From an uncultured Eubacteriales bacterium (GTDB lineage Bacteria; Actinomycetota; Coriobacteriia; Anaerosomatales; JAAXUF01), in NCBI GenBank assembly GCA_964388455.1, contig CAYMAN010000001.1, forward strand, positions 27,158 through 91,157: a stretch of 64,000 bases of DNA, given 5' to 3'. Made by a program: the position numbers and the translations under genes. The notes beneath the pieces were generated by a model. That model was not told where the DNA came from. It saw only the letters and a program-made list of their open reading frames with translations, and did no database searches. Below are positions 5,533 through 39,126 of this stretch, piece by piece (positions within the stretch are counted from its first letter, which is position 1; the number at the start of each line of letters is the position of its first letter).

Positions 5533-5562
5533 CGGCTGCAGGGTCGACGCATATCGCACGAA

Positions 5563-5588: not shown

Positions 5589-5679
5589 CCATCGCTGCCG
5601 AACAGCGACGCCGTGCGTTTCGCGAGTATCGCGTTGCAGTCACGTTGCGGGGCTTGTGAGGCCGCGGAACGCCGCTGTT

Positions 5680-16944: not shown

Positions 16945-16966
16945 GCGATCGGTGGCGTAGCCGCTT

Positions 16967-18656: not shown

Positions 18657-18708
18657 CAACGCTTCCCTCCCGGGTTTCGGAACCGAGAGCCTCCGGCTAC
18701 TCGTCGGT

Positions 18709-21195: not shown

Positions 21196-22026
21196 CTACT
21201 TCACTCGCACCTTCACCGCGACTTCTTCGCCATCGACGAAGAACGGGGTGTCGGCGCTGTTGATCTTGTCCTCCATGTCGAAGTTGAAGAGGCCGGCATC
21301 GGCCTTATCGGCGTGGATAGCCACGAGCAGGTTGCTTGTCAGGGGCAGCGGGTCCAGAGCGACAGTCGTGTTGAGCGACTCGCCTGCGGGGATGCGCGCA
21401 AGACCGACGCGACCACCAGGGCCACCGTCCTTCTCGAGGTGCACGACGATCCAGGCATCGGTGGGAGCAACTGCCTTGGATACCACAAGCTCATCCTTGG
21501 CGCCGACCTGATCGGACGCCTCGACCAATGCCGTTCCTGCGGCTGCCGGTACGCCGAACTCGCGCACGCTGGCTACCAGAGCGAGCTCCTTCTCGTTCAC
21601 GAAGAACGGGCGATCGGGGCTCATCTCCTTGTTCATCATGTCGAAGTCGTACTCACCCTTGGTACCGCGGTCCGCGTGCACCGCAACGATGACCTTGGGA
21701 GTCGTGAGATCCTCGAGTTTGACCTTTACGTCGACGGACTCCCCCTTCTTCACAGGGGCGAGTCCTACGCGCATGCCGGGCTTGCCGTTCATGTCGGTGT
21801 GCACGACGATCCAGCCGTCGCTCGGCGAAAGAACGCGTTTCACGACCAGCTCTTCGACGCCGTTCTGATCTTCATCGAGCTCGAGCTGCGCTGTTTCGGC
21901 AGTGGCCACATAGCCCCATACCTTCGAGGTGTCGGTCTTCTCGGCGGTGTCGGTGGCACATCCGGACAAAACCGCCGTTGCCCCGAGCAGGGAGAGTACG
22001 GCGCCTACGAGTGCGATTCGCTTCAT
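21196..22026 (-). CDS. lipoprotein built from two tandem copies of a ~110-aa domain of unknown function; ATGA-coupled to copA
   Basis: [23 protein letters not shown] lipobox. Residues ~43-153 and ~164-275 align ([23 protein letters not shown]... / [23 protein letters not shown]...). Confidence 0.7.
21202..21900 (-). repeat. intragenic tandem domain duplication (21568..21900 and 21202..21537)
   Basis: Protein-level repeat with a 120-aa period. Shared blocks: ELVV.K.V.P.D.WIVVH, G.RVGLA, GES, VA.HAD, F.FDM, PFFV. Confidence 0.7.
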
Positions 22027-25000: not shown

Positions 25001-25787
25001 CGGGCGTCGCTTCGGGTGTGGACGCAGGTGCTCCAGCGGGGTTGATCTCGGGGAGCTCCTTGACGAAGCCTACTCCCAGGATGAAGGGGTCGCCGGGGGT
25101 GAACCCTGCGGCTGTAACGGCTTCCTCGAGACGCTCGGTCGCAACCTCGCGCTCCAGGTAGACGGTTACCGTCTGCTCTTGGGCATCAGCTTCGACGGCG
25201 GCTACGCCGTCAACCTGCTTGGCCTGCATCGAGACGAGCTTCTCGCAGGCACCACAGTGCATACCGACTGCGCTCAGCTTGAGGCGACGGTAGCGCGTGG
25301 ACGCGACCGTCGGCTGAGTGACCGGCTCAACAATTGGCTCGTCGGCGACGGGCTCCACAGCGGTCTCCTCGATCGGCTCGGGAGCGGGCTCCTCCACTGC
25401 GTCCTCCACCTCATCATCGAACTCGGGTATCACACCGCTCGCAGACACTGCGGCTATCGCGTCGCGAAGTGCTTGGGCGACCGACTCGTCCGACCTCTCG
25501 GCCTGAATCGGCAGTTCTGCTGCAGCATCAACGGATGGGTCGTCGATGACCGAAGGTGCGCCCGCCTTGAAACCGGCGCGCATGATCGCCTTGATCATCT
25601 CCTCGAACTGGACGTCGCCGTTGGCGTGGATCGTGACGAGGCTGTTCTCGTAACTTGCATCGACGTCAATCACTCCGTCGATATCGCGCAACCACGCCCC
25701 GAGCTTCTGCTCGCAGGAGTGACACCGCATACCCTCCACCCGGAGGCGGATTGTAAGTGTTGACTCATCGGGAGTTCGTGTTGCCAT
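22023..25787 (-). CDS. copA: copper-translocating P1B-type ATPase with four N-terminal HMA domains
   Basis: 1254 aa. Four GMxCxxC domains ([40 protein letters not shown]) joined by Pro/Ala/Glu-rich linkers. CPC motif ([12 protein letters not shown]), [17 protein letters not shown]. Confidence 0.95.
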
Positions 25788-25796
25788 GTTGGGCTC

Positions 25797-26342
25797 CTAC
25801 TCCACAACGATCTTGCCAAAGACCATTTCCATGCCGCACGAGAAGGCGTAGGTACCCGGCTCCAGAGCGCCGAGCTTCACGGTCTTGGGTCCGGCACTCA
25901 GGTCCTCCTGGAATCCGAGGTCCTTTGACTGCACGATCGCAGTGCAGCCGCTGCTCTGCCCGAAGGTAATCTCGGCGGGGACGCCGGCCTTGAGGCTGAT
26001 GACGTTGGGGGCATAGGTGCCGGCCGAGAGGTCGACCGATATCTTCTGCACATCGCCGGAGACGGTCGCTGTACCCGCAACCTCATCGCCGCTTACACCG
26101 TTGGCGGTCGGCTGGCCGGAGCCGCAGCACGCGCACGCCGGTGCATCGCTGCCAGAAGCGCCGCCGGTGGCCGAGCCGCTCTGCGAGCCTGCGGCAACTC
26201 CGGTGGCTCCGGCTGTCCCGGCCGAGCGGCCGCTACCTGCCGATGCGATGCGGTACGCGCCGAAGAAGGCACCCACCACCAGCACACCGACCACAACGAG
26301 TCGCATCGTGTTGCCGCTTGTCTTTGCTTCAGTGGTAGTCAT
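25797..26342 (-). CDS. membrane-anchored cupredoxin-like (cupredoxin_1-type) protein
   Basis: TM MRLVVVGVLVVGAFFGAY, a Gly/Ser/Ala linker with the Cys cluster PACACCGSG, and a beta-rich C-terminal domain ending GTYAFSCGMEMVFGKIVVE. The start could instead be the internal MRLVV. Confidence 0.65.
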   Translation of the reverse strand: MTTTEAKTSGNTMRLVVVGVLVVGAFFGAYRIASAGSGRSAGTAGATGVAAGSQSGSATGGASGSDAPACACCGSGQPTANGVSGDEVAGTATVSGDVQKISVDLSAGTYAPNVISLKAGVPAEITFGQSSGCTAIVQSKDLGFQEDLSAGPKTVKLGALEPGTYAFSCGMEMVFGKIVVE

Positions 26343-26369
26343 TGTTCGTACTCCTCATGTGTCAGACGA

Positions 26370-27626
26370 TCAGGAGAAGAATCCGCCGAATGCGAGTCCT
26401 CCGAGAATTGCGACGATCACGCCGATCACTATCATCGCGAATTGGTTGGGTTCGAAACCCAGAATCGTGACAGCCTTGCGGCTCGAAGCCGCTTCGGCCT
26501 TCTTGCGACGAACGAACCAGAGCGTACCAGCGATGCCCGCGGCCCCGAGAAGGAGCCATGCTGCCGGCGACCCGCCGGTCCCACCTGCCGAGTCACCCAC
26601 GATCAGCTGCCCGGCCATCATGCTCATTCCACACGTCAGCGTGTACGTGCCGGCCTTGGTTGCCGGGATATCGACGTTGGTCACGCCGTTGGGCGCGAGA
26701 TCCACGAGAATGTTGAGCTGCGGCATGAATATCTGTGCCGAGCACGCAACGTCCTCTCGGCGATCCACTACGAGTCGCACGGGGGTATCGGCGGGAATCT
26801 GTACGACATCCGGGACGAACCTGGTGTTCTCGATGACGAGCGGCACTTCCACCACGCCATCTGCACCTGTGGTGTAGCCAGCGGTGGAAGGAGCGGCGCC
26901 TGTGCCGACGATTGCCGTCTTCAGCGTGTTGAATGTGACCGGGGCGCCGGTTGCGACGAGACCCCGGTTGATGAACACGAGACCGAAGATGATGACGCCC
27001 ACGGACAGCACCGTCATCATGCGGTTCTTCCACTCGCGAGGGATAAGCGAGCCGGCGGTACCGAACGCGACCATCAGCGGGGCGGTGCCGAGTCCGAAGG
27101 CGGCCATACCCAAACCGCCCAGAGCGGCGCTGCCGCTGGCGGCGGCCGCCACTTGCGCGGCCATGAGCGGGCCGCACGGAAGCACGCCTGTCATGAGCCC
27201 GAATGTGATCGGTGTCGCCAGCGAGCTGTGACCTTCTTTGGCGTCGGAGACGGACTTGCGACGCATCTTGGAGAGTTGGTTGATCAGCCAACGGGGCGGC
27301 GCCGGAGTGAGCCGAGCTGCCCACTTCACCTTGCCGGTCATCCCCAGGCCGAGCACGATCATGAACACACCGGCCACGTAGTACACATACGGCCGAATCG
27401 CATCGAGGTTGACGAACCCACCGATCGCGCCAAGCAAGAGACCCACGAGCATGTAGCTCACGATCTTGGCCGCCTGGTAGGCAACGTTCGGGGTCAGCTT
27501 CTTATACCAAGGCCCGTCCTCTTCGCCCTTGACCGCATAGGTCAGAACGAGCGGGCCACACATGGACACGCAGTGCAGGCTGGTACCCAGCCCGAGCATG
27601 AACATGGAAACGATGAATACTTGCAC
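26370..27626 (-). CDS. DsbD_2/TauE-like polytopic membrane domain fused to a C-terminal cupredoxin-like domain
   Basis: GTG 27626 with GAGGAG 8 nt upstream (alternative ATG 27650). LGLGTSLHCVSMCGPL and GVLPCGPLMAAQ membrane Cys motifs. C-terminal GTYTLTCGMSMMAGQLIVGD, then a terminal TM helix. Confidence 0.7.
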   Translation of the reverse strand: MQVFIVSMFMLGLGTSLHCVSMCGPLVLTYAVKGEEDGPWYKKLTPNVAYQAAKIVSYMLVGLLLGAIGGFVNLDAIRPYVYYVAGVFMIVLGLGMTGKVKWAARLTPAPPRWLINQLSKMRRKSVSDAKEGHSSLATPITFGLMTGVLPCGPLMAAQVAAAASGSAALGGLGMAAFGLGTAPLMVAFGTAGSLIPREWKNRMMTVLSVGVIIFGLVFINRGLVATGAPVTFNTLKTAIVGTGAAPSTAGYTTGADGVVEVPLVIENTRFVPDVVQIPADTPVRLVVDRREDVACSAQIFMPQLNILVDLAPNGVTNVDIPATKAGTYTLTCGMSMMAGQLIVGDSAGGTGGSPAAWLLLGAAGIAGTLWFVRRKKAEAASSRKAVTILGFEPNQFAMIVIGVIVAILGGLAFGGFFS

Positions 27627-27738
27627 GGAATTGACTCCTCGCTGGTGCATCGGGGCGCTACAGAAAACGCAGCGTACGACATACGATTCCCGCTCCAGGC
27701 GCGCGCGAAGCGGCCGCGTGAGCGGAAGCGAGGAGATC

Positions 27739-28167
27739 CTAGACCCTGAAGCGCGCTCCGAAGGAGTCTTCGAGCGGCGGCGGCGGGTCACCAGTGTATG
27801 CGGCGACCGGTTTGAGTGAGACCCGCGGCGCGAACAGGATCGCTCCGACCACGGCGAGTATCGCGATCAACCACGTGAACGTGAGGGAATCGGCCCCACT
27901 AGGCACGATGCCGTTGGAACTGCTGGTGTTCACAACCCACTCGCCGGGGCAATCCGAGTACGCGCCACCCTGAGGCATGAACGGCATAGCACCCATGCCG
28001 ACGCCATTCATCTCGCAGCCGATCATCTGACACGTCGGCAGTACAACAGCAACCAAGGCCACGATGATGGCCAATGGCAACATAAAGCGCTGCATGTTGA
28101 CGTATCGGAACAATGATCCCCTATCGAGTTCCCGGCCCATTCTCAGCACCTTGAAGGCAAATTCCAT
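27739..28167 (-). CDS. two-TM membrane protein with a Met/Cys-rich extracytoplasmic loop; unknown function
   Basis: LPLAIIVALVAVVLPTCQMIGCEMNGVGMGAMPFMPQGGAYSDCPGEW... followed by a second TM FTWLIAILAVVGAILF. Start uncertain (M1, M10 or M25 of the track ORF). Confidence 0.45.
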   Translation of the reverse strand: MEFAFKVLRMGRELDRGSLFRYVNMQRFMLPLAIIVALVAVVLPTCQMIGCEMNGVGMGAMPFMPQGGAYSDCPGEWVVNTSSSNGIVPSGADSLTFTWLIAILAVVGAILFAPRVSLKPVAAYTGDPPPPLEDSFGARFRV

Positions 28168-28182: not shown

Positions 28183-28581
28183 TTACTCGGCCGCAGTGAA
28201 TTCGAGTGCCACTGAGTTGATACAGTACCGCAAACCCGTCGGCTCAGGTCCGTCTGGGAAGACGTGCCCCAGATGTCCGTCGCACACGGCACACGTGACC
28301 TCGGTGCGGCTCATTCCAAAACTGAAGTCCTCGTGTTCGACAACCGCGCCCTCGCTTATCGGCGCCGAAAAGCTCGGCCACCCGCAGCCCGAGTGGAATT
28401 TGGTGTCTGACGAGAACAGCTCGGATCCGCATCCCGCACACGTGTAACGGCCGTCCTCGAAGTGGTCGGTGAACACACCAGAGAATGCGGGCTCGGTCCC
28501 GGCGCGACGCAGCACGCGGAACTGCTCGGAGGACAGGATCTCGCGCCATTCGTCATCTGTTCGCAGGAGTTTGTCTCGCAT
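28183..28581 (-). CDS. msrB: peptide-methionine (R)-S-oxide reductase
   Basis: SelR/MsrB signature: two CxxC pairs ([21 protein letters not shown]) and catalytic RYCINS. Start taken at ATG 28581 ([14 protein letters not shown]); 28611 is possible. Confidence 0.9.
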
Positions 28582-28744
28582 CGCGGTGCCTTTCGAGTGT
28601 GCGGCCGTCACTCATTCTATTCCCGTTGCGGGCGGCGTCATCCTCGGCACCCGAGTCGCCGCAGCCGTATGGTGGCGGCTGCGGTCTGCGGGTCAGGCCC
28701 GGTCGACGCCGGGGCAGGAGCTGATACTGAGCAGGACCCGGCGA

Positions 28745-29125
28745 CTAGATCGTCCGCCCGACGAGCATCCCCATCAGTACCGCAGCGATGCCCAGCACCA
28801 TGCTGCCGACCATGTTCGCGACTCCTTGAGCCACCATGCCGCGCTCAAGCAGTACCACCGTCTCATACGACAGCGCCGAGAACGTGGTGAACCCACCGAG
28901 CACGCCCACTCCCAGGAACAAGCGCATCTCCAGCGTCACCACGCCTCGATGTGCGGCAAGCGCCATGAGCAGCCCGAGAAGGAACGCGCCGGCGACATTG
29001 ATGACGAGAGTGTGCCACGGGAAGAACGAATTCCACCGCTGAGCGATCCACGTGCCGAGGACATAGCGCATCCCACCACCGATCGCGGCGCCAAGCATGA
29101 CCCCCAGAACGTTCGCGATTCTCAA
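28745..29125 (-). CDS. crcB: fluoride channel CrcB/FluC
   Basis: TTG 29125 with GGAGG 6 nt upstream (track start 29161 is an alternative). GTWIAQRW...FPWHTLVINVAGAFLLG and GVLGGFTTFSALSYE are typical CrcB motifs. Confidence 0.85.
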   Translation of the reverse strand: MRIANVLGVMLGAAIGGGMRYVLGTWIAQRWNSFFPWHTLVINVAGAFLLGLLMALAAHRGVVTLEMRLFLGVGVLGGFTTFSALSYETVVLLERGMVAQGVANMVGSMVLGIAAVLMGMLVGRTI

Positions 29126-29167
29126 ACCCGGCCTCCGATAAGCGACAACCCTGCGGAGCATTCTAGG

Positions 29168-29851
29168 CTATGCGCCCTGTCCGCCAACCGGAGCGGCGGA
29201 GCTCTCCTCACTGTTCGCGCTCGCAGCGCTCGTCGCGAGCCGTTTGCAACGCTCGAGCTCGTCGCGAAGGATGGGCGACGCGGGAACGGAGGTCTCCTCG
29301 TAGGCGAGGCTGAAGTCCGCGCAGAACTTCTGGGCCTTCTCGCGATACTGCGCGAGATCCTCCTCGGCCAGGCCGGTGTTGAAGAAGAGGCCTCGCTTGT
29401 AGTGGGTGAAGAGGCGCTTGGCCATCTCCATGGGGTCGCGGCCGTACTTGGCTGCGCGGTCAAGCTTGAGCTCCTTGATTACCATGTGCGCGCTGACCTC
29501 GGCCCAGCCGGGACTCATGAACCAGGTGCCGACCTCGTGCTCGATCTCTGCCGCGTAGCGCTCCGGGGTGAGCATGAACATGATGCAGTCGTCGTACGGC
29601 GGCAGCACGGTGGGCACGTTGACCAGCAGTTCGATGTCCTTGAGCGACTGGCAGTAGCCATAGCCGAGGAAGACCGCGTCGACCTTGCCCTCAAGCTCGT
29701 TGATCTGCTCGACGATGGCGTCGCGCATGCGCTCCGGGTAGATGTGCAGCGCCGCCTCGAGCCAGACGACCTCCGTGATGTCGGGGTCGTTCTCGATGAG
29801 CGCAGCAATCTCGTTCTTGATCATGTCGCAGGCGATGACGGCGATTCGCAT
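29168..29851 (-). CDS. DUF1638-domain protein
   Basis: 227 aa. MRIAVIACDMIKNEI...AVFLGYGYCQSL...YDDCIMFML. Recalled family association with corrinoid methyltransferase loci, not verified here. Confidence 0.7.
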   Translation of the reverse strand: MRIAVIACDMIKNEIAALIENDPDITEVVWLEAALHIYPERMRDAIVEQINELEGKVDAVFLGYGYCQSLKDIELLVNVPTVLPPYDDCIMFMLTPERYAAEIEHEVGTWFMSPGWAEVSAHMVIKELKLDRAAKYGRDPMEMAKRLFTHYKRGLFFNTGLAEEDLAQYREKAQKFCADFSLAYEETSVPASPILRDELERCKRLATSAASANSEESSAAPVGGQGA

Positions 29852-29875
29852 GTGTGGGGCCGCTTTCTGCGAGTG

Positions 29876-31501
29876 TCAGCCGGCCGAGCGCGGAAAGCGC
29901 ATGGCCGAGACGAATCGGGTCTGGAACTCCGGGTGCCCGGCGAGGTCGACGGCGGTCACGTGACGCGCGATCGACTCGGCGCGGCGACGGGTGGCAGTGT
30001 CGAGCAGCGCCATGAGCGTGCCGGTCATGGCGGTGTTTCCCGCGAAGGTCACGCGATCGTGCCATGCCGAGGGAATCATGCCCATGCGCACGATCGCAGA
30101 GGCCTTCACGTGGAAACCGAAGCCGCCTGCGATGATGAGCTCGTCGACGTCTGCCGCGTCCACCTCGGCGGCGTCGAGAAGCATGTCGATGCCTGAGGCG
30201 ATGGCCGCGTTGGCGAGCTGCACCTGGCGCACGTCACGTTGCGTGAGGAATACGCTGGGCGTGATCTCGAAGGCGCGGGTGCCCTCGCGCTCCGAGACGC
30301 GGGTGGCAAGGGGATGTGCGACGTCGCCGCGCAGTCGGCCGGAGTGGTCGAGGACGCCGGCGTCGAGGAGCACCGCGATGAGGTCGAGCAGGCCGCTGCC
30401 GCACAACCCGCGGGGGGTGGTGCCGCCGATGGTCTCGATCGCGAGGCAGCCGGAGTCGTCCAGCGACACGCGCTCGACGGCGCCCTCCTCGGCGCGCATG
30501 CCGTAGGCGATGCTGGCGCCCTCGAGCGCGGGGCCGGCGGCGGTCGACGCGGCGACGAGGCCGCTCGGGGTGCGCAGCACCATCTCGCCGTTGGTGCCCA
30601 GGTCGACCAGCAGGACCATGCGCTCGTGCTCGGCGATGTGGGTGGCGACGAGCCCGGCCGTGATGTCCGCTCCCACGAACGCGGAGATTCCCGGCAGCAC
30701 ATACACGCCAGCCGCCGAGAGACCCGCGAGACCGACCTCAGCGGCGGGGCGCTCCAGTGGATCGAGGAACGCAGGCTCGTAGGGCGCGATGCCGAGCGGC
30801 GCCGGATCGAACCCGAGCAGCAGGTGGACCATAGTGGTGTTGCCCGCGATGGAGACCTCTCGGACACGCTCTACGGGCTGGCCGATGGCGGCAAGCACTT
30901 CGCCCACCAGCGTCTCGATGGCAGCGGCGATCGGTGCGCGCAGCGACTCAGTGCCGTGCGCAGCCACGTGTGTGATGCGCGACATGACATCGTGCCCGAA
31001 GGGATGCTGCGGGTTGAGCGCCGACGCCGAGCCCAGCCGCTCGCCGGACTCGAGGTCGTGAAGCGCGACCACCACCGTGGTGGTGCCGATGTCGACCACC
31101 GCGCCCAGCAGCGGCCCATCGCCGACGATGCCGCGGGCGGACGGCGGCTCGATCGCGAGCTCGCCTTGCTCGCCGGCCTCCACGATGCGCAGTCCGGCCG
31201 CGCCGACAGGCGATCCGTCGAGGGCTCGCACGATCACGTCGCCCGCCACGCGCGCGCGACACGCCAGCCTGATCCCCGCCGAGAGGCTGTCCGCGCCCAA
31301 GAGCACGCGCTCGTCCGCTGACGCGCTGGCGAGCTCGCCCTGCGCCCTGACTGCGCAGCGGCCGCACGTCCCGAGGCCACCGCAAGGCGCGTCGAGCGCG
31401 ACCCCGCCAGCAGCTGCAGCGTCTTTGATTGTGGTGCCGAGCTCGACGAGGACACGAATCCCCGACGGCTCGAATGTGATTGTGGCAAATGGCTCTGACA
31501 T
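29876..31501 (-). CDS. reductive activator of corrinoid enzymes (RACE/RACo-type: 2Fe-2S ferredoxin domain plus ASKHA ATPase domain)
   Basis: 541 aa. N-terminal plant-type ferredoxin motif DAPCGGLGTCGRCAV...LACRARV. ASKHA blocks VVDIGTTTV and LLVDLGTNGEMV. Confidence 0.85.
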   Translation of the reverse strand: MSEPFATITFEPSGIRVLVELGTTIKDAAAAGGVALDAPCGGLGTCGRCAVRAQGELASASADERVLLGADSLSAGIRLACRARVAGDVIVRALDGSPVGAAGLRIVEAGEQGELAIEPPSARGIVGDGPLLGAVVDIGTTTVVVALHDLESGERLGSASALNPQHPFGHDVMSRITHVAAHGTESLRAPIAAAIETLVGEVLAAIGQPVERVREVSIAGNTTMVHLLLGFDPAPLGIAPYEPAFLDPLERPAAEVGLAGLSAAGVYVLPGISAFVGADITAGLVATHIAEHERMVLLVDLGTNGEMVLRTPSGLVAASTAAGPALEGASIAYGMRAEEGAVERVSLDDSGCLAIETIGGTTPRGLCGSGLLDLIAVLLDAGVLDHSGRLRGDVAHPLATRVSEREGTRAFEITPSVFLTQRDVRQVQLANAAIASGIDMLLDAAEVDAADVDELIIAGGFGFHVKASAIVRMGMIPSAWHDRVTFAGNTAMTGTLMALLDTATRRRAESIARHVTAVDLAGHPEFQTRFVSAMRFPRSAG

Positions 31502-31525
31502 TGAGGTTCCTCGGTGAGCGGACGG

Positions 31526-33595
31526 CTAGAGAAGTGGCGGACCGGATGCTGTGGCCACCACCGTGAGCTCGACGAAGACGTCATCGTCGGCACGTGTCTG
31601 GCGCGCCAGCACCTCGTCGTGGGTGAGCGACACGATGGCATCGGGGGCGCCAGCGGCGTGGGCGGCCGCGATCGCCGCCTCACTCGCGAGCTCTTCGGCA
31701 CGGCGCCGCGCGGTGGCGTAATCGGGGTAACGCTCACGCACGGCAGGCGTGATGACCACGAAGTTCTCGTCGGGTTCGGCCTTGACCTTGGCCTCGGCGC
31801 GCTCCAGCACACGTCCCGCGAGCGCGCCGTATGCGTTGGCGACCTCGGCATGCGGCGGGATGACAAGCTCCGAGGCGAGCAGCGCGTTCGCTCCCGGGAA
31901 CCACGCAGCGACCGGCGCACCCACCGCGACGAGCGGCACACCCAACCCGACCTGCACGCGCAGCACGCCGCTCCTTCCGGACGCGAGCTGATGCGTGAGC
32001 AGCCCGATCTCCGCCGAGGAGGGCTCGGTGCCGGCGGTGTCGGCGGCTAGCGCACGGGCAGCGAGCTCAAGCGCCAGCCGGGCGCCGACAGCCTCGCGCA
32101 CGCGAGCCGCGAGTGCGTCCGGCCGCAGCCGAGCGACGCTCGCGAGCAGGCGCAGCCCGAGCGTGGACGCCGCCGCGTCGCCCAGCGCGAGGTCTCCTGA
32201 AGCCGCGAGAACGTCGGTCGGAGTGAGCGCGATCTCCGCGAGATGCCCCGCACGCACGAGGGCGTCGAGGTCGATGAATGGCCCTCCAACACGCACGACC
32301 TCACCGATGTGCACCGCGCGGCCCTCGAGCAGCGCGAACACGTCGGACATGCGGGTTGAACTCTCGCGGTCCGGGCGGCTTCCGGGGCGCTTCACCAGCG
32401 TGAGGAAGAGAGGCTCCTCAGCCAGCTCGTCTTTCGACGCGAGCGCCGCGAACCGCTCAAGTTCGCCGAGGAGCTCGGGGAACTTCTCGGCGGCGGTGCA
32501 AAGTGGTACGGCTCGGTCGGGGCCGAGGGTGACGCGACCATCGGAGTCGACGCGGACTCGGCTGTCGCCTCCCAAGCCCACGGTGCGCACGTCGAGCGCC
32601 TGGACGCGCGTGCGCCAGCCGCCCACGAGCGCGCCCTCGGGGCTGACCTCGGGCATCCCGCCGGCGACGAACGCTATGTCGGTGGTGGTGCCGCCCATGT
32701 CGGCGACGATCGCGGAGGTGAGGCCGGAGAGCCGGCACGCGCCCACGACGCTCGCGGCGGGACCGGACAACACGGTGTCGACGGGGCGCAGGCGCGCGAC
32801 CGTCTCGGCGGTCAGAGAGCCATCGCCTTTGACGACCATGAGCGGCGCGTCGATGCCGAACTCGCCAAGGGTGGTGCGCACCGCGTCGAGCAGGTCGCGG
32901 ACGAGGGGCAGCAGGCGTGCGTTGAGTGCGGCGGTCGTGGCGCGCTCAACCATGCCGATGCGCTGCGAGAGCTCGTGACCGCAGACCACGGGTGCGGCGC
33001 ACGTGTTTGCGATCAGCGCGCGGACGGCGACCTCGTGCTCCGCATTCGCGACGCTGAAGAAGGCCGAGACCGCGAACGCGTCCACCGAGGAGGCCATGCG
33101 CGCGACTGCGGCCTCTGCGGCAGCGACGTCGAGGGGCGTGCGAAGCGAGCCGTCGGGGGCGTGAGCGCCGGCGATGACCGCCACGTCGGCAGCGGGTAGG
33201 CCGCCGGGCAGCGAGAACGTCGCGGGGTCAGGCACTGCGATGATGAGGCCGACGCGCGCACCCTTGCCTTCGACCACCGCGTTTGTGGCAAGCGTGGTCG
33301 ACAGCGACACGAGCTCGACGCCGGGCAGCAGACCCGCGTCGATCGCACCCAGCGCGTCGCGGATCCCGATGGCCAGATCCTCGCGCGTGGTGGGCCGCTT
33401 GGCCTTCGCGAGTATCTCGCCAGTGCCGAGGTCGACCGCGACCGCATCGGTGAACGTGCCCCCGGTGTCAATGCCCAGTCCCAGCGGACTCCGCCGCTGA
33501 GACTGGCTCGCTTCGAGCCGACGGCTGCGCCGCGGCTCAAGCTCGCCCCGAAGCTCTGCTATCGGGCCGCCCTGTGGGGCTTGCTTCTCGGACAC
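31526..33595 (-). CDS. hydantoinase/oxoprolinase A (HyuA)-family ASKHA ATPase, with no HyuB partner in the window
   Basis: 689 aa. GTG start 1 nt after the upstream stop. LGIDTGGTFTDAVAV, IVADMGGTTTDIAFV. A ~40-aa Arg/Glu/Gln-rich N-terminal extension makes the exact start uncertain. Confidence 0.8.
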   Translation of the reverse strand: MSEKQAPQGGPIAELRGELEPRRSRRLEASQSQRRSPLGLGIDTGGTFTDAVAVDLGTGEILAKAKRPTTREDLAIGIRDALGAIDAGLLPGVELVSLSTTLATNAVVEGKGARVGLIIAVPDPATFSLPGGLPAADVAVIAGAHAPDGSLRTPLDVAAAEAAVARMASSVDAFAVSAFFSVANAEHEVAVRALIANTCAAPVVCGHELSQRIGMVERATTAALNARLLPLVRDLLDAVRTTLGEFGIDAPLMVVKGDGSLTAETVARLRPVDTVLSGPAASVVGACRLSGLTSAIVADMGGTTTDIAFVAGGMPEVSPEGALVGGWRTRVQALDVRTVGLGGDSRVRVDSDGRVTLGPDRAVPLCTAAEKFPELLGELERFAALASKDELAEEPLFLTLVKRPGSRPDRESSTRMSDVFALLEGRAVHIGEVVRVGGPFIDLDALVRAGHLAEIALTPTDVLAASGDLALGDAAASTLGLRLLASVARLRPDALAARVREAVGARLALELAARALAADTAGTEPSSAEIGLLTHQLASGRSGVLRVQVGLGVPLVAVGAPVAAWFPGANALLASELVIPPHAEVANAYGALAGRVLERAEAKVKAEPDENFVVITPAVRERYPDYATARRRAEELASEAAIAAAHAAGAPDAIVSLTHDEVLARQTRADDDVFVELTVVATASGPPLL

Positions 33596-33596
33596 G

Positions 33597-34667
33597 CTAC
33601 GCCACGTTGTGGCCGTCGTAGCGACCGTACTTGCGGGCGGCCATGATCAGCGCGTCGATGTTCTCGGGCGGGGTGTTGATGGGCACTTCGCAGCCTGAGC
33701 CGAGGATGAAGCCCGCGGGCGAGTCGAGCATGCCTTCGCAGATGCCCTTGGCCTCGGCGTCGATCTGTTCGGGGGTGTTGTTGAGAAGGTTGGCGGGGAC
33801 GACGTTGCCCACGAGCACCACGCGGTGCCCGGCTGCTTCCTTGGCCTCGGCGAGGTTGACGGCGTCCAGGCTCCACAGGTCGAAGTCGGCGTCGAGCATG
33901 ACCTCCCAGTTGGGTTTGGTCTTGCCGCAGATGTGCAGGCCGGCGAGCGGGGCACCGGCAGCGTGCAGATGATCGGCGACGCGCTTGAGGTACGGCGCCA
34001 CGAACTCGGTGAAGTGCTTGGGCGACACGAGCGAACCCGAGCCGATGGGCTCGACCACGAACGGCAGGCCGCCGCGCTTGAGGATCGCGTCGATGAAGCG
34101 AATGTTGGCCTGTGTCGTCAGCTCGAGTAGCTCGTGGACCTGCGCTTTGTTCTTGTACAGGTCGCGGCTCATCACATCGAGTGGACGCAGCGCCGCCGCC
34201 GTAGTGAACGGGCCGCCCAGAACCACTGAGACGACCACCTCCCCGCCGACCTCCTTCACGCAGTGCTCGAGCGCCTCGAGGTAGATTGGCAGGCGGCCGT
34301 CCTTCTCGGGATCGGGCATGGTGATCTTGGAGAAGTCGAAGCCGTCCTCGAGCGGGAACACGTCGATCTGCGGCGCGTCCTCATCGAAGAACTTCATGGT
34401 GGTGCCCATGGACTCGGCGAGCGTGGAGGTCGTCGAGAAGATGGTGATGATGTCGTTGCCGTAGCGGCGGAACGCGGCGACGTGGGCCTCGCCCATGAGC
34501 TTGCCGCTGCGGTTGTACTCGCCCACCTTGATGCCGGTGACGCGCGCGGCGTGGTTCAGGATGAGCGGGAAGCAGGCGACGCGCTGCGGGTGCTCGCCCT
34601 TCAGGTAGCTGACGACGCGCTCGAGCGAGTTCTGGGTATCGGCGGGGATGTCGAATGTGGTGGTCAT
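33597..34667 (-). CDS. URO-D-family (MtaA/MtbA-like) corrinoid methyltransferase, copy 2
   Basis: ATG 34667 (MTTTFDIPADTQNS) inside track ORF 33597..34715. Zn-site-like motifs GLHICGKT and LGSGCEVP. Confidence 0.8.
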   Translation of the reverse strand: MTTTFDIPADTQNSLERVVSYLKGEHPQRVACFPLILNHAARVTGIKVGEYNRSGKLMGEAHVAAFRRYGNDIITIFSTTSTLAESMGTTMKFFDEDAPQIDVFPLEDGFDFSKITMPDPEKDGRLPIYLEALEHCVKEVGGEVVVSVVLGGPFTTAAALRPLDVMSRDLYKNKAQVHELLELTTQANIRFIDAILKRGGLPFVVEPIGSGSLVSPKHFTEFVAPYLKRVADHLHAAGAPLAGLHICGKTKPNWEVMLDADFDLWSLDAVNLAEAKEAAGHRVVLVGNVVPANLLNNTPEQIDAEAKGICEGMLDSPAGFILGSGCEVPINTPPENIDALIMAARKYGRYDGHNVA

Positions 34668-34761
34668 GGCCACGGGTCCTTTCGGCGTGGGTTCAGGTGC
34701 TCGCGGGCGATTCAAGTGCCGCGCCGGATGCGACCCGTTCGCAGGCCGCGGTACCGGCGGT

Positions 34762-35421
34762 CTAGGCAGCTGTGCTCGCGAACAACTCGGTCGCGACGCG
34801 CACGGCGCCGGCTGCGTTGTCGGCGTAACCGTCGGCGCCGATGCGGTCAGCGAACGAGCGGCTGATGGGGCCGCCGCCGATCATGACCTTGAAGCGGTCG
34901 CGGATGCCCTCTTCTTCGAGCATCTGGATGACCGAAGCCATGCCGTCCATGGTCGTGGTCATGAGCGTCGAGAGGCAGATGAGCTGCGAGTTCGTCGCCT
35001 TGGCCTTCTCGATGAACTCCGCGAGTGGCACGTCTCGGCCCAGGTCGTGGACCTCGAAACCGGCCACGTCGAGCATGATCTTGACCAGGTTCTTGCCGAT
35101 GTCGTGCGTGTCACCCTTGACCACGCCGATGACGCACCCGATCTTCTCGGCACGGTCCGAGGCCTTGATGTGTGGCTTGAGCACGTCGAGCGCGGCATAC
35201 ATCGCGTCCGAGCAGATCAGCAGCTCGGGGACGAAGTACTCCTCCTCGTCGTAGAGGCGACCGGCCTCGTTCATGCCCACGACGAGCCCGTGCGTGATGG
35301 CATCGTAGGCGTCGAGTCCGGCTTCGACCGCTTCGTGCGCGGTGGCCACTGCGAGGTCCTCGTCGAGCTCCAGTACCCCTTTGGCGAGATCGGCGAGGAT
35401 TTCTTCGTTCGAACGCGGCAT
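34762..35421 (-). CDS. cobalamin-binding corrinoid protein
   Basis: 219 aa. B12-binding DxHxxG motif (VVKGDTHDIGKNLV), with SxL (LSTLMTTT) and GG (MIGGGP) elements. N-terminal helical cap domain. Confidence 0.9.
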   Translation of the reverse strand: MPRSNEEILADLAKGVLELDEDLAVATAHEAVEAGLDAYDAITHGLVVGMNEAGRLYDEEEYFVPELLICSDAMYAALDVLKPHIKASDRAEKIGCVIGVVKGDTHDIGKNLVKIMLDVAGFEVHDLGRDVPLAEFIEKAKATNSQLICLSTLMTTTMDGMASVIQMLEEEGIRDRFKVMIGGGPISRSFADRIGADGYADNAAGAVRVATELFASTAA

Positions 35422-35467
35422 GCTCGTACCCTTCTCGGTTCGGTCGCCGGATCAGGCGGCCTGTGGT

Positions 35468-36535
35468 CTATGCGGTGGCGAGCTCGCGGAGCTCGACGGA
35501 TTCCTCGGATGGCAGCGTGCCGGAGACTACGTCGGCGATTGCACGGATGTTGGCAACGGGGGTGCGCGGGCCGATGCCGCACGCTGGTGCCACGATGTCG
35601 ACGCCGTCACGCATGCGGGCAGCGGCGACCTGGCGCAGCGTGCCTGCCTTGCCGTACTCGAGCAGGTACGTGCTCACGTTGCCCATGGTCACGTGCTCGG
35701 GCGCAAGCGCACGCAGCGTGCGGAAGGACACGTTGCTGTCGATGCTGATCGCCGGCGCGGAGATCTCGGCCAGTGCGCCGCGCAGTGCTTTCACATCCCC
35801 GCAGATGTGCACGATCGACAGCACGCCGCGCCCAGCGAAGTGGTCGACGATGCGATTCACGTACGGCAGCGCGAAGGCCTCGAACGCCTTGGCGCCGATG
35901 AGCTCGCCGGTGCCGCTCGGGTCGGCTATGCAGATGGTGTCGGCGCCTGCGTCCACGAGCGCGTCACCCAGCGCAATCGCGGCCTCGGCGGACACCTCGA
36001 GCAGCGCGTGCGCGGCGGTGGGGTCGCGGCGCATTGCTCGATAGAATTCCAGGGGATCGGCGAGCGATGTCGCCAGGGAGATCGGGCCGGTGAGGCTCGC
36101 AATCATGGGCATGTCGGATCGCTCGGCGACGAGCAGTCTCGTGGCCGATACGGCGACGGCAGCCCTGCCGCGCGTCGCGTCGAATGCGTCGAGGCGGTCG
36201 ACGTCGGCCAACGCATCGAGCGCGTACCCGGTGACTCTCGGCTCCGTCTTGGCGTCGCCCAGATCGACAGGCGCGCCCATTCCCTCGGCTTCGATCGTCA
36301 TGCAGAAGGGTGTGCCGAGATTCTCGACGCCTGCGACGTCCGCCATGCCGAGGACGAGGCGAGCCATGCTCTCGGCGTCGGAGTGTGCGCGGGGCCACGA
36401 CTCCCCCACCGCTTCCATCACGTCGGTGACGGCCATATTCATCATGCCACCGGGGCAGATGAACGGCGCGCGGTCCACGGGGGTTCGTGCAAGAACCGCG
36501 CGTAGTCGCTGCTTTGGGGTGATGGAGCTGGTCAC
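35468..36535 (-). CDS. URO-D-family (MtaA/MtbA-like) corrinoid methyltransferase, copy 1
   Basis: GTG 36535 (VTSSITPKQRLRAVLARTPVDRAPF, a family-typical N-terminus). The track start 36586 is a TTG. Zn-site-like motifs IVHICGDV and APACGIG. Confidence 0.8.
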   Translation of the reverse strand: MTSSITPKQRLRAVLARTPVDRAPFICPGGMMNMAVTDVMEAVGESWPRAHSDAESMARLVLGMADVAGVENLGTPFCMTIEAEGMGAPVDLGDAKTEPRVTGYALDALADVDRLDAFDATRGRAAVAVSATRLLVAERSDMPMIASLTGPISLATSLADPLEFYRAMRRDPTAAHALLEVSAEAAIALGDALVDAGADTICIADPSGTGELIGAKAFEAFALPYVNRIVDHFAGRGVLSIVHICGDVKALRGALAEISAPAISIDSNVSFRTLRALAPEHVTMGNVSTYLLEYGKAGTLRQVAAARMRDGVDIVAPACGIGPRTPVANIRAIADVVSGTLPSEESVELRELATA

Positions 36536-36627
36536 AGAGTTCCGTCCGTCGCTTATCCGGAGCCTGATAGGTCGAATAAGCAACAACTATTCCACACTTA
36601 TCGCACAAACGGAAGCGGCAGTGCGCT

Positions 36628-37356
36628 CTAGCCGATCGAACAGCCCACCCCACGGCCGCCATCTCGCACCATGGCGATCAGTCGGGATCGCCCGGCGTCG
36701 CTCAGCCCCAGATCAGCGATCTCGCCCTCGAGCTGCGCCTTCGTCCCGTCGCCAGCGACGTAGCCGTTCACGTGCGCGGCGGACGTGCTCTCGCGCAGCG
36801 CGGCCTCGTCATCGCCGAACATCGCGTTGAAGTCCGTCGCCAGCACGCGGTCATTTCGCAGATAGTACTTTTGGTGGTAGTCCTCGGCGTTCCAGAAGCG
36901 CTTGAGGGGCTCGATGCGTGTGGCGAGCGGGCGTCCACCGAGCACCGCCGAGAACCTCGCGGCCCGCTCCTCGGCGACTGCCAGTTGCTCAGCGTCGTGC
37001 GCGAGAATGACGGATGCGTACTGCTCCTTGTGCGCGACCCACGTGGGGTTGTGCGAGGCGAACGCGAGGTCCACCAGCTCCGAATAGGTGATCACCGAGG
37101 GCTCGAAGTCGACCTGGAAGCACTCGGTCTGATCTCGCAGGTCCCGATAGGTGGGGTTGGCGTAGTCGCCGCCGGCGTACCCGACCCGCGTGCGCCAGAC
37201 TCCTTCGACGAGCCCGAACCGGGCGTCAGGGGTCCAGAATCAACCGACACCGAACGTCGCCGTGGCGAGCACGCCGGGAACCTGCAGGTCCAGGGCCGGT
37301 ATCGCGAGCGGCTCGGGAGTGGCCGCCGGTTCTTGGGATCGAAAACCTCGGAACAT
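36628..37356 (-). CDS. msrA: peptide-methionine (S)-S-oxide reductase, probable selenoprotein (TGA 37242..37240 read as Sec)
   Basis: ATG 37356 with GAGAGGAGA SD. ...ATFGVG-TGA-FWTPDARFGLVEGVWRTRVGYAGGDYANPTYRDL..., in frame with track ORF 36628..37095. The TGA sits at the Cys of the MsrA GCFW motif. Later motifs: RFWNAEDYHQKYY. Confidence 0.7.
37207..37227 (-). other. putative bacterial SECIS hairpin
   Basis: mRNA GACGCCCGGUUCGGGCUCGUC begins 13 nt after the UGA. 3-bp lower stem, 2-nt 3' bulge, 4-bp upper stem, GGUUC apical loop at about +23 to +27 from the U of UGA. Confidence 0.45.
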
Positions 37357-37403: not shown

Positions 37404-38627
37404 CTACTCCTCCAGCGCGTTGGCGAGCTGTTCGAGGAAGAGTCCCACATCGGTGACGATACCCACTGTCTGCCACGAGCCTCGGTCCGCGAGCTTGGTC
37501 ACGACCGCCGGATTGATGTCGACGCACACCGTGGTGGTCGACGCAGGCAACATGTTGCCGGTAGCAATCGAGTGCAGCATCGTCGAGAGCATCAGGCACG
37601 CACCGGCACCCTGCGCGTAGTGGCGCATCGCGTCCTGCGCCTCGATCACGTCGGTGATCACGTCCGGCAGCGGACCGTCGTCGCGGATCGAGCCCGCGAG
37701 CACGAACGGCGTGTTGGTCTTCACTAGCGTGTACATGAGTCCCTTGGTGATGACCCCCGCGTCAACCGCAGCCTTGATCGAGCCGTAGCCGCGCACGGTG
37801 TTGATTGCGCGCAAATGGTGTTCGTGCCCGCCAAACGTCGGCACGCCCGTCTCCAGCGCCACGCCCAGCGATGTCCCGTACAGCGCGCTCTCGATGTCGT
37901 GCGTCGCCACGGCGTTCCCGCCAAAGAGCACGGTGATGTAACCCATGTTCACCAGCCGAGCGAGTTCGTCAGCGGCACCCGTGTGAACGACCGCAGGCCC
38001 CACGACCGCGATGACCTCTCGGCCAGCGGTGCGATTGTCTCGGAGCATCTTCGCCACATCGGCCACGACCTGCGCCTTGGGCTTCTCGCTCGATACCGAG
38101 GAGGACATGAACTCGAATGCCTGCTTGTCGCGTGGACGTTCCTGCGGATGAACTCGGATGCCGATGTGGCCGACGACGAACCGGTCGCCCTCGCGCGCGT
38201 CGGCCATCGGGATCGCCTCGGCGGTTCCGGCGACCGGATCGATGCGCACGCCGAGGTCCATCTCGGGATTGGTGACACGGACCCAGGCGCCGTCGATGCG
38301 GATGTCAGACTCCATGTTGGTGGTCGAGTAGAAGCCGTCGGGGAACACACCGTCCATCTGTGCAGGCTTGGTCTGGGCATCAGCCGGATCGACAGACACC
38401 GCGCCGTGCGCTCCCACCTGTCCCAGAATCTCGTCGAGCACCACTTGATCAACCGCGCGCACGCGCAGAACGCACACAGACGGATCGTCATTGGTGCGGC
38501 CGACGTCGAAGCTCAGCGTCTCGAACTCGCCGCCCAGCGCGATGACCGTGTCCATCACCTGCGACATGATTCCCGAGTCGATCAGGTGACCTTCGATGCG
38601 GACGTCTTCGAACACGGAGTGAATCAT
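37404..38627 (-). CDS. TIGR00300-family protein (LOR/SDH-type domain; arginine dihydrolase / archaeal ornithine cyclodeaminase-like)
   Basis: ATG 38627 (MIHSVFEDVRIEGHLIDSG) with GGAGG upstream, inside track ORF 37404..38840. Family assignment is from recalled sequence similarity only. Confidence 0.6.
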   Translation of the reverse strand: MIHSVFEDVRIEGHLIDSGIMSQVMDTVIALGGEFETLSFDVGRTNDDPSVCVLRVRAVDQVVLDEILGQVGAHGAVSVDPADAQTKPAQMDGVFPDGFYSTTNMESDIRIDGAWVRVTNPEMDLGVRIDPVAGTAEAIPMADAREGDRFVVGHIGIRVHPQERPRDKQAFEFMSSSVSSEKPKAQVVADVAKMLRDNRTAGREVIAVVGPAVVHTGAADELARLVNMGYITVLFGGNAVATHDIESALYGTSLGVALETGVPTFGGHEHHLRAINTVRGYGSIKAAVDAGVITKGLMYTLVKTNTPFVLAGSIRDDGPLPDVITDVIEAQDAMRHYAQGAGACLMLSTMLHSIATGNMLPASTTTVCVDINPAVVTKLADRGSWQTVGIVTDVGLFLEQLANALEE

Positions 38628-38700
38628 GATGCCCTCCAAGACAGTAGCGTGAGCGAGTGGGAACCGCGCGACCCTGGCCGAGAGTAGCGGCTTGTCGAAG

Positions 38701-39126
38701 CTAGTACGAGCCGTGCACTCCCAGCATGCCAAAGGTGCACGGCACGACGCTGATACTCGCATCAAGTGAGTAGGCGCCGGTCGCCACGTCAGGGTTTCTG
38801 TAGTCGGCCGGGCTCGGCGCTGCCGGACAGTGCGGCGCAATCCTGAGTGCCTGATCGCGTATCAGCGGATGCGCCTCATTCACGACTCCCTCGAGTATGC
38901 TCGACGGTGAGGCGTTCATTGCGCTCCACGTGCTGACCGCGCCATCGACGATGCGCTGGTTCGAGAAACACGTCTTCTGCTTCGCATTGGCGAGATTGGC
39001 GTAGAAGACCGGGATCGCTACTGCGATGAGCACGCCGATGATGACCACCACGACCATGAGCTCGACGAGGCTGAATCCCTCGGACTGCGTGAGCCGGACG
39101 CTTCGCAATGTCATCGGGATGCGCAT
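38701..39126 (-). CDS. prepilin-type (type IV pilin / pseudopilin-like) protein
   Basis: Class III signal plus methylation motif SEGFSLVELMVVVVIIGVLIAVAIP. Four Cys in the C-terminal globular part. No pilus or T2SS genes nearby. Confidence 0.7.
   Translation of the reverse strand: MRIPMTLRSVRLTQSEGFSLVELMVVVVIIGVLIAVAIPVFYANLANAKQKTCFSNQRIVDGAVSTWSAMNASPSSILEGVVNEAHPLIRDQALRIAPHCPAAPSPADYRNPDVATGAYSLDASISVVPCTFGMLGVHGSY

Follow-up and report, generated by a model that had tools for sequence, protein, structure and literature searches.

We analyzed a 64-kb stretch of DNA from an uncultured, Coriobacteriia-like actinobacterium (contig CAYMAN010000001.1; hereafter the window, whose numbering is used throughout) and find that a six-gene cluster on its minus strand is, on balance, best read as a type 1 mlp gene cluster, i.e., a corrinoid-dependent methyl-chalcogenide transfer system. 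The cluster encodes two URO-D-family zinc methyltransferases (MT-A and MT-B), a corrinoid carrier protein (CP), a HyuA-like ATPase, a reductive activase and a DUF1638 protein (Table 1). It is not a new kind of system but an actinobacterial addition to the type 1 mlp family described in a preprint (Kountz and Balskus 2023, bioRxiv, PMC10418091), and sulfur or selenium chemistry is supported, not proven, for the MT-B clade. The new parts are a conserved accessory set of HyuA-like, DUF1638 and often CobW proteins, and a tight MT-B orthogroup that spans several phyla.

Architecture of the gene cluster

An earlier reading of the window from its letters alone (the sequence-only reading) had described six co-directional, tightly spaced minus-strand genes that together make a corrinoid module of two methyltransferases, a corrinoid protein and an activator. 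Both descriptions hold: the six open reading frames (ORFs) lie on the minus strand, separated by gaps of 46, 94, 1, 24 and 24 bp from MT-A to DUF1638, and the Pfam and NCBIfam assignments agree with the module. An independent gene caller reports the same six products (355, 219, 356, 689, 541 and 227 amino acids) on four independent metagenome contigs with an identical corrinoid protein. The end of MT-A at 36586 belongs to a TTG-extended ORF, the likely start being a GTG at 36535. No terminator-like site is present within the six-gene cluster, over which G+C content ranges from 63 to 71% (2-kb windows). The gene order of this Coriobacteriia-like lineage is MT-A, CP, MT-B, HyuA-like, activase and DUF1638, and the closest genome, a groundwater Coriobacteriia metagenome-assembled genome (MAG; L007, where L-numbers denote orthologous or related loci collected from other genomes and contigs), shows an identical order with 72 to 88% identity.

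Table 1. Features of the window, with the matches that support each assignment
Feature	Coordinates	Strand	Evidence
MT-A, MtaA-like (Mlp3-type) zinc methyltransferase	35468..36535	-	Pfam URO-D, E 1.4e-71
CP, corrinoid (B12-binding) carrier protein	34762..35421	-	Pfam B12-binding_2, E 2e-19, and B12-binding, E 3e-24
MT-B, divergent URO-D-family (Mlp2-type) zinc methyltransferase	33597..34667	-	Pfam URO-D, E 7.6e-73
HyuA-like ASKHA ATPase without HyuB	31526..33595	-	Pfam Hydant_A_N and Hydantoinase_A, residues 40-362 only
RACo/RACE-type reductive activase	29876..31501	-	Pfam Fer2, E 5.5e-7; Raco_middle, E 1.1e-51; RACo_C_ter, E 2.5e-71
DUF1638 protein	29168..29851	-	Pfam DUF1638, E 3.5e-29
MsrA with in-frame TGA (37242..37240)	36628..37356	-	read-through ...ATFGVG*FWTPD...; ends 92 bp upstream of MT-A
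CrcB fluoride exporter	28745..29161	-	Pfam CRCB, E 9.6e-26; NCBIfam TIGR00494, 88.6 bits (cutoff 80.45)
MsrB	28183..28611	-	
Probable copper/heavy-metal island	22023..27791	-	
Nickel-pincer-nucleotide-dependent ornithine cyclodeaminase	37404..38840	-	TIGR00300, 514 bits (cutoff 411)
[NiFe]-hydrogenase-like ORFs and HdrA-like protein	5824..10948	+	Oxidored_q6 (small subunit-like); NiFeSe_Hases (large subunit-like, partial match)

The corrinoid protein narrowly misses the cutoff of TIGR02370, 'methyltransferase cognate corrinoid protein' (214.1 bits against 215.3). Its translation shows DTHDIG (the DxHxxG motif), an S-T-L stretch and GGG, and it is 67 to 88% identical to the corrinoid proteins of orthologous clusters. 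The sequence-only reading had seen no pterin-binding methyltransferase in the window, and homology searches confirm this. Across the 64 kb, no homologue of the pterin-binding, MttB or MTHFR families was detected by tblastn (E > 1) or by profile hidden Markov models run on all six-frame segments (best E 0.37, <6 bits). For a tetrahydrofolate (H4folate) methylase, a 17-sequence Pterin_bind profile, with its seed confirmed as PF00809, and tblastn gave nothing better in the window than E 1.6 and <3 bits.

Relationship to mlp gene clusters

Four criteria define an mlp gene cluster, among them co-directional genes, gaps of at most 2 kb and the absence of an H4folate methylase within 20 kb, and type 1 clusters combine Mlp2 and Mlp3 (PMC10418091). 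The window cluster has all four properties, as judged from Pfam and NCBIfam content, strand, gaps of 1 to 94 bp and the absence of a folate methylase. Furthermore, three orthologous loci lie in genomes that are on the preprint's own list of type I carriers (Supplement 3, PMC10418091), namely, Geomesophilobacter sediminis GCA_016458275 (L005), Desulfuromonas sp. TF GCA_000472285 (L089) and Pseudodesulfuromonas thiophila GCA_900101955 (L006).

The two methyltransferases differ in how close they stand to characterized enzymes. MT-A reaches the cutoff of the PRK06252 'methylcobalamin:CoM methyltransferase' subfamily (354 bits, cutoff 244) and stays below the equivalog cutoffs of MtaA (NF040654; 229 against 400) and MtbA (NF041608; 207 against 600). 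Its top match in the PDB is MtaA of Methanosarcina mazei (4ay7, E 8.8e-47), at 28 to 29% identity over aligned columns, and in a neighbor-joining tree the MT-A proteins of the clusters form one clade, sister to MtaA, at 51 to 57% identity to the window protein; across the taxa of the MT-B orthogroup, MT-A homologues are 51 to 58% identical. MT-B scores at most 146 bits against the MtaA and CmuA models, below every cutoff, including those of the MtaA and MtbA equivalogs (121 against 400 and 93 against 600, respectively), and its C-terminal part weakly matches the chloromethane enzyme CdmB (E 2e-8).

The MT-B orthogroup itself is tight, with 60 to 95% identity across Coriobacteriia, other Actinomycetota, Geobacterales/Desulfuromonadales, Nitrosomonadales and Syntrophorhabdales. 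Among 1.84 billion library representatives at 50% identity, it makes up two clusters, and the next relatives reach at most 41%. The nearest named relatives outside the clade are proteins of Methanococcus maripaludis, Methanococcus aeolicus and Methanothermococcus (35 to 37% identity for M. maripaludis and Methanothermococcus). MT-B clusters in the tree with these Methanococcales proteins and a protein from a Clostridia MAG, and one of the Methanococcales relatives (L116) is encoded directly after a corrinoid protein gene. In the preprint's tree, Mlp2 is sister to a clade of coenzyme M methyltransferases, Mlp1 and Mlp3, and the Mlp2 clade includes Methanococcus voltae (PMC10418091). Our tree agrees with this topology, with MT-A beside MtaA and MT-B apart with the Methanococcales proteins.

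Both methyltransferases carry the zinc motif H-x-C...C that the sequence-only reading had proposed, and alignment to MtaA 4ay7 supports it. H-I-C and A-C-G of MT-A align to LHICGN and PGCGIAP of the M. mazei enzyme, and so do the H-x-C and the distal C of MT-B; these two segments of MtaA are known to carry its zinc ligands. The three columns read H, C and C throughout the 22 aligned sequences (MT-A, MT-B and references), and the MT-B residues, H245-x-C247 and C326, are invariant across 14 orthologues. The His-Cys-Cys zinc sphere of the Mlps is therefore present in both window proteins. This sphere marks the sulfur and selenium methyltransferases of the UroD superfamily, and O-demethylases replace the Cys ligands (PMC10418091). 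Replaced or lost Cys ligands, together with a co-encoded H4folate methyltransferase, are what distinguishes corrinoid O-demethylases (PMC10418091), and neither is seen here.

The sequence-only reading had left the substrate unassigned and had made its claim depend on the two methyltransferases not falling inside a characterized group with the same gene neighborhood. That independence is largely lost, given the fit to the mlp criteria and the shared carrier genomes, although the group that receives them is only partly characterized biochemically.

Conservation across phyla

We gathered 30 loci with an MT-B orthologue (at least 60% identity), 17 of which keep the core. Because the core is kept across 17 of the 30, the gene set is not a chance juxtaposition. 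Within the 17 core loci, CP, MT-A and the activase are present in all, the HyuA-like gene in 16 and DUF1638 in 15; the two incomplete loci lie on truncated contigs, and every contig of sufficient length has all six genes. The HyuA-like and DUF1638 genes, which the sequence-only reading had singled out as extra conserved partners, are thus confirmed as such across genomes. Hosts of the MT-B clade are mostly MAGs of Desulfobacterota/Geobacterales, Nitrosomonadales, Steroidobacteraceae, Actinomycetota and Syntrophorhabdales.

In Proteobacteria and other Actinomycetota the order is CP, MT-B, a variable insert, MT-A, activase, HyuA-like and DUF1638. Among the variable inserts and flanking genes we observe a CobW-type GTPase in 8 loci, an SsuA-family ABC transporter in about 5 (L006, L090, L112, L094 and L106), an outer-membrane beta-barrel insert in 4 and a small membrane protein insert in 3, the last two without a Pfam match. 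Double-cubane proteins with a BcrAD-type ATPase and ArsM-family methyltransferases also belong to this variable set. The slot between MT-B and MT-A in Gram-negative carriers holds either a predicted outer-membrane beta-barrel of 292 amino acids or a multi-pass membrane protein of about 190 (e.g., L087 11103..11687 and L088 11098..11961; also L095, L099, L093 and L094), and these proteins may be substrate uptake channels.

Activase, DUF1638 protein and HyuA-like ATPase

The activase has the domain composition of the RACo/RACE family, with a 2Fe-2S ferredoxin domain at the N terminus, a RACo middle domain and an ASKHA ATPase domain at the C terminus, all above Pfam cutoffs, and its translation carries the motif CGGLGTCGRC. 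It falls under the family cutoffs of AcsV (365 against 800 bits) and RamA (93 against 500), which places it in the superfamily but outside these two subfamilies.

DUF1638 proteins share a near-invariant set of residues. In a set of 32 proteins from diverse corrinoid loci (the window protein and 31 others, e.g., L005 14692..15309, L009 and L065), C67 and C89 occur without exception, C8 and H36 are shared by 31, and C177 is conserved only in the mlp-cluster clade (19 of 32). To judge from this alignment, the Cys3-His set suggests a previously undescribed metal or cofactor site. A single-sequence structure model (predicted local distance difference test [pLDDT] 50, predicted template modeling score [pTM] 0.36) was too poor for a fold search. 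DUF1638 does not turn out to be an extra of unknown connection, as it had seemed in the sequence-only reading. Fitness genetics in Phaeobacter inhibens showed that DUF1638 and a RamA-like protein are both needed for B12 reactivation of the split MetH, and the two co-occur phylogenetically (PMC5764234); DUF1638 and RamA were also more abundant in Ruegeria pomeroyi grown on N-osmolytes (PMC12478193).

For the HyuA-like protein, Pfam similarity is confined to the N-terminal 360 residues, with a sub-threshold MutL/GlmL match in addition, and scores are far under every NCBIfam equivalog cutoff. An AlphaFold model (pLDDT 83, pTM 0.77) searched with Foldseek matches acetone carboxylase beta, caprolactamase alpha and N-methylhydantoinase over the whole length (E 1e-22 to 1e-25, query TM at most 0.62), and the ATPase motifs GIDTGGT and DMGGTTTD are invariant. 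No HyuB-like partner gene is present in the window or in any orthologous locus, and the protein is in this respect not a HyuA/HyuB enzyme.

Distant relatives of the HyuA-like protein (33 to 46% identity) were found in 78 further genomes, with hosts that include Methanomassiliicoccales, Methanosarcina, Methanolobus, Halanaerobiaceae, Anaerolineae, Oceanospirillaceae and a Rhizobium. In 35 of the 78 loci, one or more components of a corrinoid methyltransferase system are encoded within 7 kb: a corrinoid protein in 21, MttB in 18, a pterin-binding methyltransferase in 17, DUF1638 in 14, RACo in 10, URO-D in 7 and a protein resembling the MetH activation domain in 5. One published paper draws the HyuA-like gene as 'HydA', without comment, in glycine-betaine methyltransferase loci. 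Two kinds of small protein are encoded directly upstream of distant HyuA-like genes: one of 243 amino acids that weakly resembles the MetH activation domain (PF02965), in 5 loci, and a Cys-rich, zinc-ribbon-like one of 110 amino acids without a Pfam match, in 8 loci, mostly of Methanomassiliicoccales (e.g., L015 9232..9963 and L035 9658..9990).

We infer that the HyuA-like protein may serve as an ATP-dependent maintenance factor of corrinoid proteins. A broader proposal, which we put forward tentatively and regard as rather doubtful at present, is that the HyuA-like and DUF1638 proteins form a previously unrecognized second ATP-dependent module for maintenance of the corrinoid carrier (e.g., loading, exchange or repair of the cofactor) that acts beside RACo and is general across substrate classes in bacteria and methanogenic archaea.

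Substrate class and rival readings

By analogy with MtsA, MtpA-MtaA and SdmABC, the system would work from thiol to thiol. The His-Cys-Cys zinc of MT-B, as an Mlp2-type enzyme, would bind a small methylated selenium or sulfur compound, with methylselenol and dimethylselenide or methanethiol, dimethylsulfide (DMS) and other methylthio compounds as candidates. The methyl group would pass via MT-B to the Co(I) corrinoid protein, and selenide/selenol or sulfide/thiol would be released for assimilation. MT-A, as an Mlp3-type enzyme, would then unload CH3-Co(III) onto a thiol acceptor, for which sulfide and homocysteine are candidates; this bacterial host is not expected to make coenzyme M. The RACo-type activase would use ATP and its 2Fe-2S cluster to re-reduce adventitiously oxidized Co(II) to Co(I), with DUF1638 working alongside it and the lone HyuA-like ATPase serving as a further maintenance factor. 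Gene content, zinc ligands, orthology and neighborhoods are observed directly; the direction of transfer, the substrates, the acceptor and the roles of these last two proteins are inferred.

The sequence-only reading had held that the donor (methoxy-aromatic, methyl-thioether or other) and the acceptor cannot be read from the sequence. For the donor, this stands as to the choice between selenium and sulfur and no longer as to its class, given that the His-Cys-Cys sites favor sulfur or selenium. We would place selenium first as the donor element, with somewhat less than even confidence, sulfur second as a real but lesser possibility, and any other donor as rather unlikely. We leave the chalcogen open because all MT-A proteins fall in one clade, which includes genomes labeled non-selenium as well as genomes not so labeled.

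Several observations lean toward selenium. In L088, from a 6.9-Mb genome, selD (369 bits, an AhpD-like fusion), selA and selB lie directly upstream of the cluster (3553..9100) and a NifS-like cysteine desulfurase directly downstream, after DUF1638 (17470..18612); a further ORF of this locus (2605..3216) matches only the N-terminal part of an 'ArsM/AhpD domain selenoprotein' and may end at a selenocysteine (Sec) codon. In L087, a Nitrosomonadales MAG, genes for rhodanese, TusA, DsrE and an OsmC-related (seleno)protein domain lie upstream, and an arsenite-methyltransferase (ArsM)-family gene (17320..18150; PRK11873, 267 bits, cutoff 263), followed by CobW, sits between two DUF1638 paralogues (16654..17295 and 18237..18878). 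ArsM-family or selenoprotein-type methyltransferases are thus found in or beside both loci. A double-cubane protein (513 bits) and a BcrAD-type ATPase are encoded in L006; a double-cubane protein is present in L106 and L108 as well, and the same gene clusters recur in L106, L108, L089 and L115.

In the window itself, MT-A is directly preceded by an MsrA gene whose in-frame TGA occupies precisely the position of the catalytic Cys in the GCFW motif, and the ORF is conserved on both sides. With the TGA read as Cys, the match to Pfam PMSR starts at profile position 1 (E 9e-36), the 'Selenoprotein MsrA helical domain' is matched below threshold (E 8.5e-4), and the identical split ORF is called on an independent contig (L001). 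The window MsrA is probably a selenocysteine protein. Taken together, the sel and NifS genes of L088, the double-cubane and ArsM-family genes, the rhodanese/TusA/DsrE set and this MsrA form a selenium-leaning context. In the same direction, ClMlp2 moves a methyl group from methylcobalamin to selenide with a Km of ~80 uM, 4.3-fold faster than to sulfide (PMC10418091).

Other points weigh against our reading or against its selenium version. The equation of MT-B with Mlp2 and of MT-A with Mlp3 was made indirectly, from relatives and not from reference Mlp sequences, and we know of no assayed member of this MT-B orthogroup. Of about 12 independent contexts, only one has sel genes next to the cluster. 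The window holds neither Sec machinery nor tRNA-Sec, and the SECIS-like hairpin that starts 5 nt after the MsrA TGA is not statistically distinguished from shuffles, its energy being no better than theirs (z = -0.64). The Mlp3 proteins of Geomonas, Geotalea, one G. sediminis cluster and DDH964 are labeled 'non-selenium clade' (PMC10418091); going by these labels, the role may lie with methyl-sulfur compounds or methionine salvage. Sulfur-leaning neighbors are present too, in the form of the SsuA-family transporters, a core-MetE-like gene 3 kb upstream of the cluster in L087, and the MsrA and MsrB that flank the cluster here.

Some of these points support the strongest alternative, which we rate as possible but hold only tentatively, namely, that the element is sulfur, with MT-B demethylating a methylthio compound (methanethiol, DMS or a methionine-salvage intermediate) and MT-A methylating homocysteine or another thiol. 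The cluster would then be a corrinoid-dependent route for salvage of methionine or sulfur and match the 'non-selenium' type 1 clusters of the preprint (PMC10418091), and Geomonas silvestris (L117) shows the same architecture with a CobW gene and an amino-acid permease after the cluster. The rhodanese, TusA and DsrE genes of L087 can be counted on this side as well, and ClMlp2 has some activity with sulfide (PMC10418091). Against a sulfur role stand the Mlp3 proteins of Desulfuromonas sp. TF and P. thiophila, which are not labeled non-selenium (PMC10418091), the selDAB and NifS genes directly flanking L088, and the double-cubane and ArsM-selenoprotein-family neighbors. The nearest named relatives of MT-B are those of Methanococcales, in which Sdm serves selenium, and no MarHDK-like or Mtn genes were seen near the orthologous loci.

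We consider it improbable that the cluster carries out net methylation, i.e., transfer from some unknown donor onto selenide, sulfide or a metalloid for detoxification or volatilization. The only activity measured in vitro for an Mlp2 is indeed from methylcobalamin to selenide, yet the authors describe the ClMlp2 assay as run in reverse for convenience (PMC10418091). An ArsM-family gene lies inside the L087 cluster, and an island with a heavy-metal P-type ATPase and cupredoxins adjoins the cluster here and in L091; two thiol-type methyltransferases without MttB, MtaB or a pterin-binding donor enzyme nevertheless fit thiol-to-thiol transfer better, and SAM-dependent enzymes already handle metalloid methylation.

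Still less credible is a catabolic O-demethylase or methylotrophy module that would pass the methyl group of a methoxy-aromatic compound or methanol to H4folate via a methyltransferase encoded elsewhere. The layout of methyltransferases, corrinoid protein and activase is shared with such modules, the weak CdmB match of MT-B could be read in this way, and the host appears anaerobic from the hydrogenase and nickel-pincer-nucleotide-dependent enzymes of the window. We disfavor this module because His-Cys-Cys is kept in both methyltransferases, without carboxylate substitution; in addition, no pterin-binding or MTHFR gene is present in the 64 kb, and hosts such as the Nitrosomonadales and Steroidobacteraceae MAGs are unlikely methylotrophic acetogens. 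The identity of MT-B across phyla also speaks against it, since MT I paralogues of O-demethylases are far more divergent. Moreover, OdmB and VdmB share only ~17% identity with ClMlp3, which corresponds to MT-A in the preprint (PMC10418091).

MT-A may also be thought of as a housekeeping methionine synthase that methylates homocysteine, but the transporters and porins, which vary between loci, and the neighbors linked to selenium or sulfur look like salvage of external compounds, not core biosynthesis. Two further ideas were rejected: a methyl-fluoride or methyl-halide substrate, suggested by CrcB next to the cluster here and ~8 kb away in L087 but unsupported, since CrcB is not found in the other contexts and the sole methyl-halide match is the weak one of MT-B to CdmB (E 2e-8), and anoxic demethylation of methyl-arsenic, suggested by the ArsM neighbors and paddy-soil Geomonas hosts, which we judged chemically less plausible for a thiolate-type zinc site.

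Flanking genes

Downstream of DUF1638, the CrcB gene follows after 42 bp from its gene-call start (29125) or 6 bp from its ORF start (29161), with a weak promoter-like match ahead of it (29187..29160), and it is possibly co-transcribed with the cluster. MsrB comes next after CrcB. L087 likewise has a CrcB gene (with DUF190), ~8 kb away from its own cluster, which may be a coincidence. Over the whole window, only one tRNA reaches the Rfam gathering score, and no cobalamin, SAM or fluoride riboswitch does.

The probable copper/heavy-metal island encodes a P-type ATPase of 1254 amino acids with four HMA domains, a cupredoxin-like protein and a DsbD-cupredoxin fusion, and in L091 the orthologous gene cluster has P-type ATPases from that sequence cluster on either side. 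On the other side of the window cluster, the ornithine cyclodeaminase gene adjoins genes for a prepilin-type N-methyl protein and PurE, with purD and purA further on. The plus-strand hydrogenase-like ORFs, which are followed by an FAD/4Fe-4S HdrA-like protein, fit an anaerobic host, although the match of the large subunit is partial and the ORF boundaries are uncertain.

Significance

Dimethylselenide, dimethyldiselenide, methylselenol, DMS and methanethiol are major mobile forms of selenium and sulfur in anoxic soils, peat, groundwater and the gut, and to our knowledge the way in which non-methanogenic bacteria reclaim selenium or sulfur from methylated forms is poorly known. The locus described here extends the mlp family to a Coriobacteriia-like actinobacterium, and the tight conservation of the MT-B clade across phyla suggests a single substrate that is small and common, and recommends the clade for biochemical study. 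The RamA/RACE activase is often not sufficient for reconstituted corrinoid systems, and the strictly co-inherited HyuA-like and DUF1638 proteins are concrete candidates for the extra factors. Their roles bear as well on split methionine synthases and on marine glycine-betaine demethylation.

Comparison with known systems

With the type 1 mlp clusters, the window cluster has in common the absence of a nearby H4folate methylase, the His-Cys-Cys sites, and the pairing of one methyltransferase near the coenzyme M methyltransferases (Mlp3-like, MT-A) with one farther away (Mlp2-like, MT-B), as well as, in its relatives, selenium-linked neighbors (selABD, the double-cubane protein and Sec lyase-like genes). 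It differs from the clusters of the preprint in having no Mlp1 and in its Coriobacteriia-like actinobacterial host; 'Actinobacteria' does not occur in the paper and its supplements, the carrier table being represented by part 1 of two (PMC10418091). The carriers of the preprint are obligate anaerobes, mostly Firmicutes (PMC10418091), whereas the MT-B clade is found mostly in other phyla. Neither the HyuA-like and DUF1638 proteins nor the frequent CobW is mentioned in the preprint or its supplements (PMC10418091).

SdmABC of M. voltae and M. maripaludis likewise combines a corrinoid protein with URO-D methyltransferases, and the URO-D proteins of Methanococcales are the nearest named relatives of MT-B outside its clade, at only 35 to 37% identity (M. 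maripaludis and Methanothermococcus relatives). Coenzyme M is thought to be the methyl acceptor of SdmABC, and the window bacterium is not expected to make it; furthermore, the methanogen locus L116 has no activase, HyuA-like or DUF1638 gene. The sdm genes are reported to be genetically needed for dimethylselenide use in M. voltae (Niess and Klein 2004, as cited in PMC10418091), and the corresponding loci of M. maripaludis are strongly induced by selenium starvation, as is the TusAD sulfurtransferase system (PMC11097638). MtsA/MtsB, MtpA/MtpC with MtaA, and MtaA/MtbA resemble the window system in fold, His-Cys-Cys site and thiol-corrinoid-thiol logic; relative to the coenzyme M methyltransferases MtaA and MtbA, MT-A remains within the PRK06252 subfamily and outside the equivalogs, at the 28 to 29% identity to MtaA given above.

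The HyuA subunits of hydantoinase, caprolactamase and acetone or acetophenone carboxylase share with the HyuA-like protein the whole-length fold and the ASKHA nucleotide-binding motifs, but here no partner subunit is encoded nearby, and the genomic company is one of corrinoid methyltransferases, not of lactam or ketone metabolism. The RamA-like and DUF1638 pair of Roseobacters (Price et al. 2018, PMC5764234; PNAS 2025, PMC12478193) also joins a ferredoxin-domain RamA/RACo-type activase to DUF1638. That pair serves a MetH-type or MtgB-type (pterin/MttB) system from unlinked genes, whereas in the window cluster the two are operonic with URO-D methyltransferases and a HyuA-like gene.

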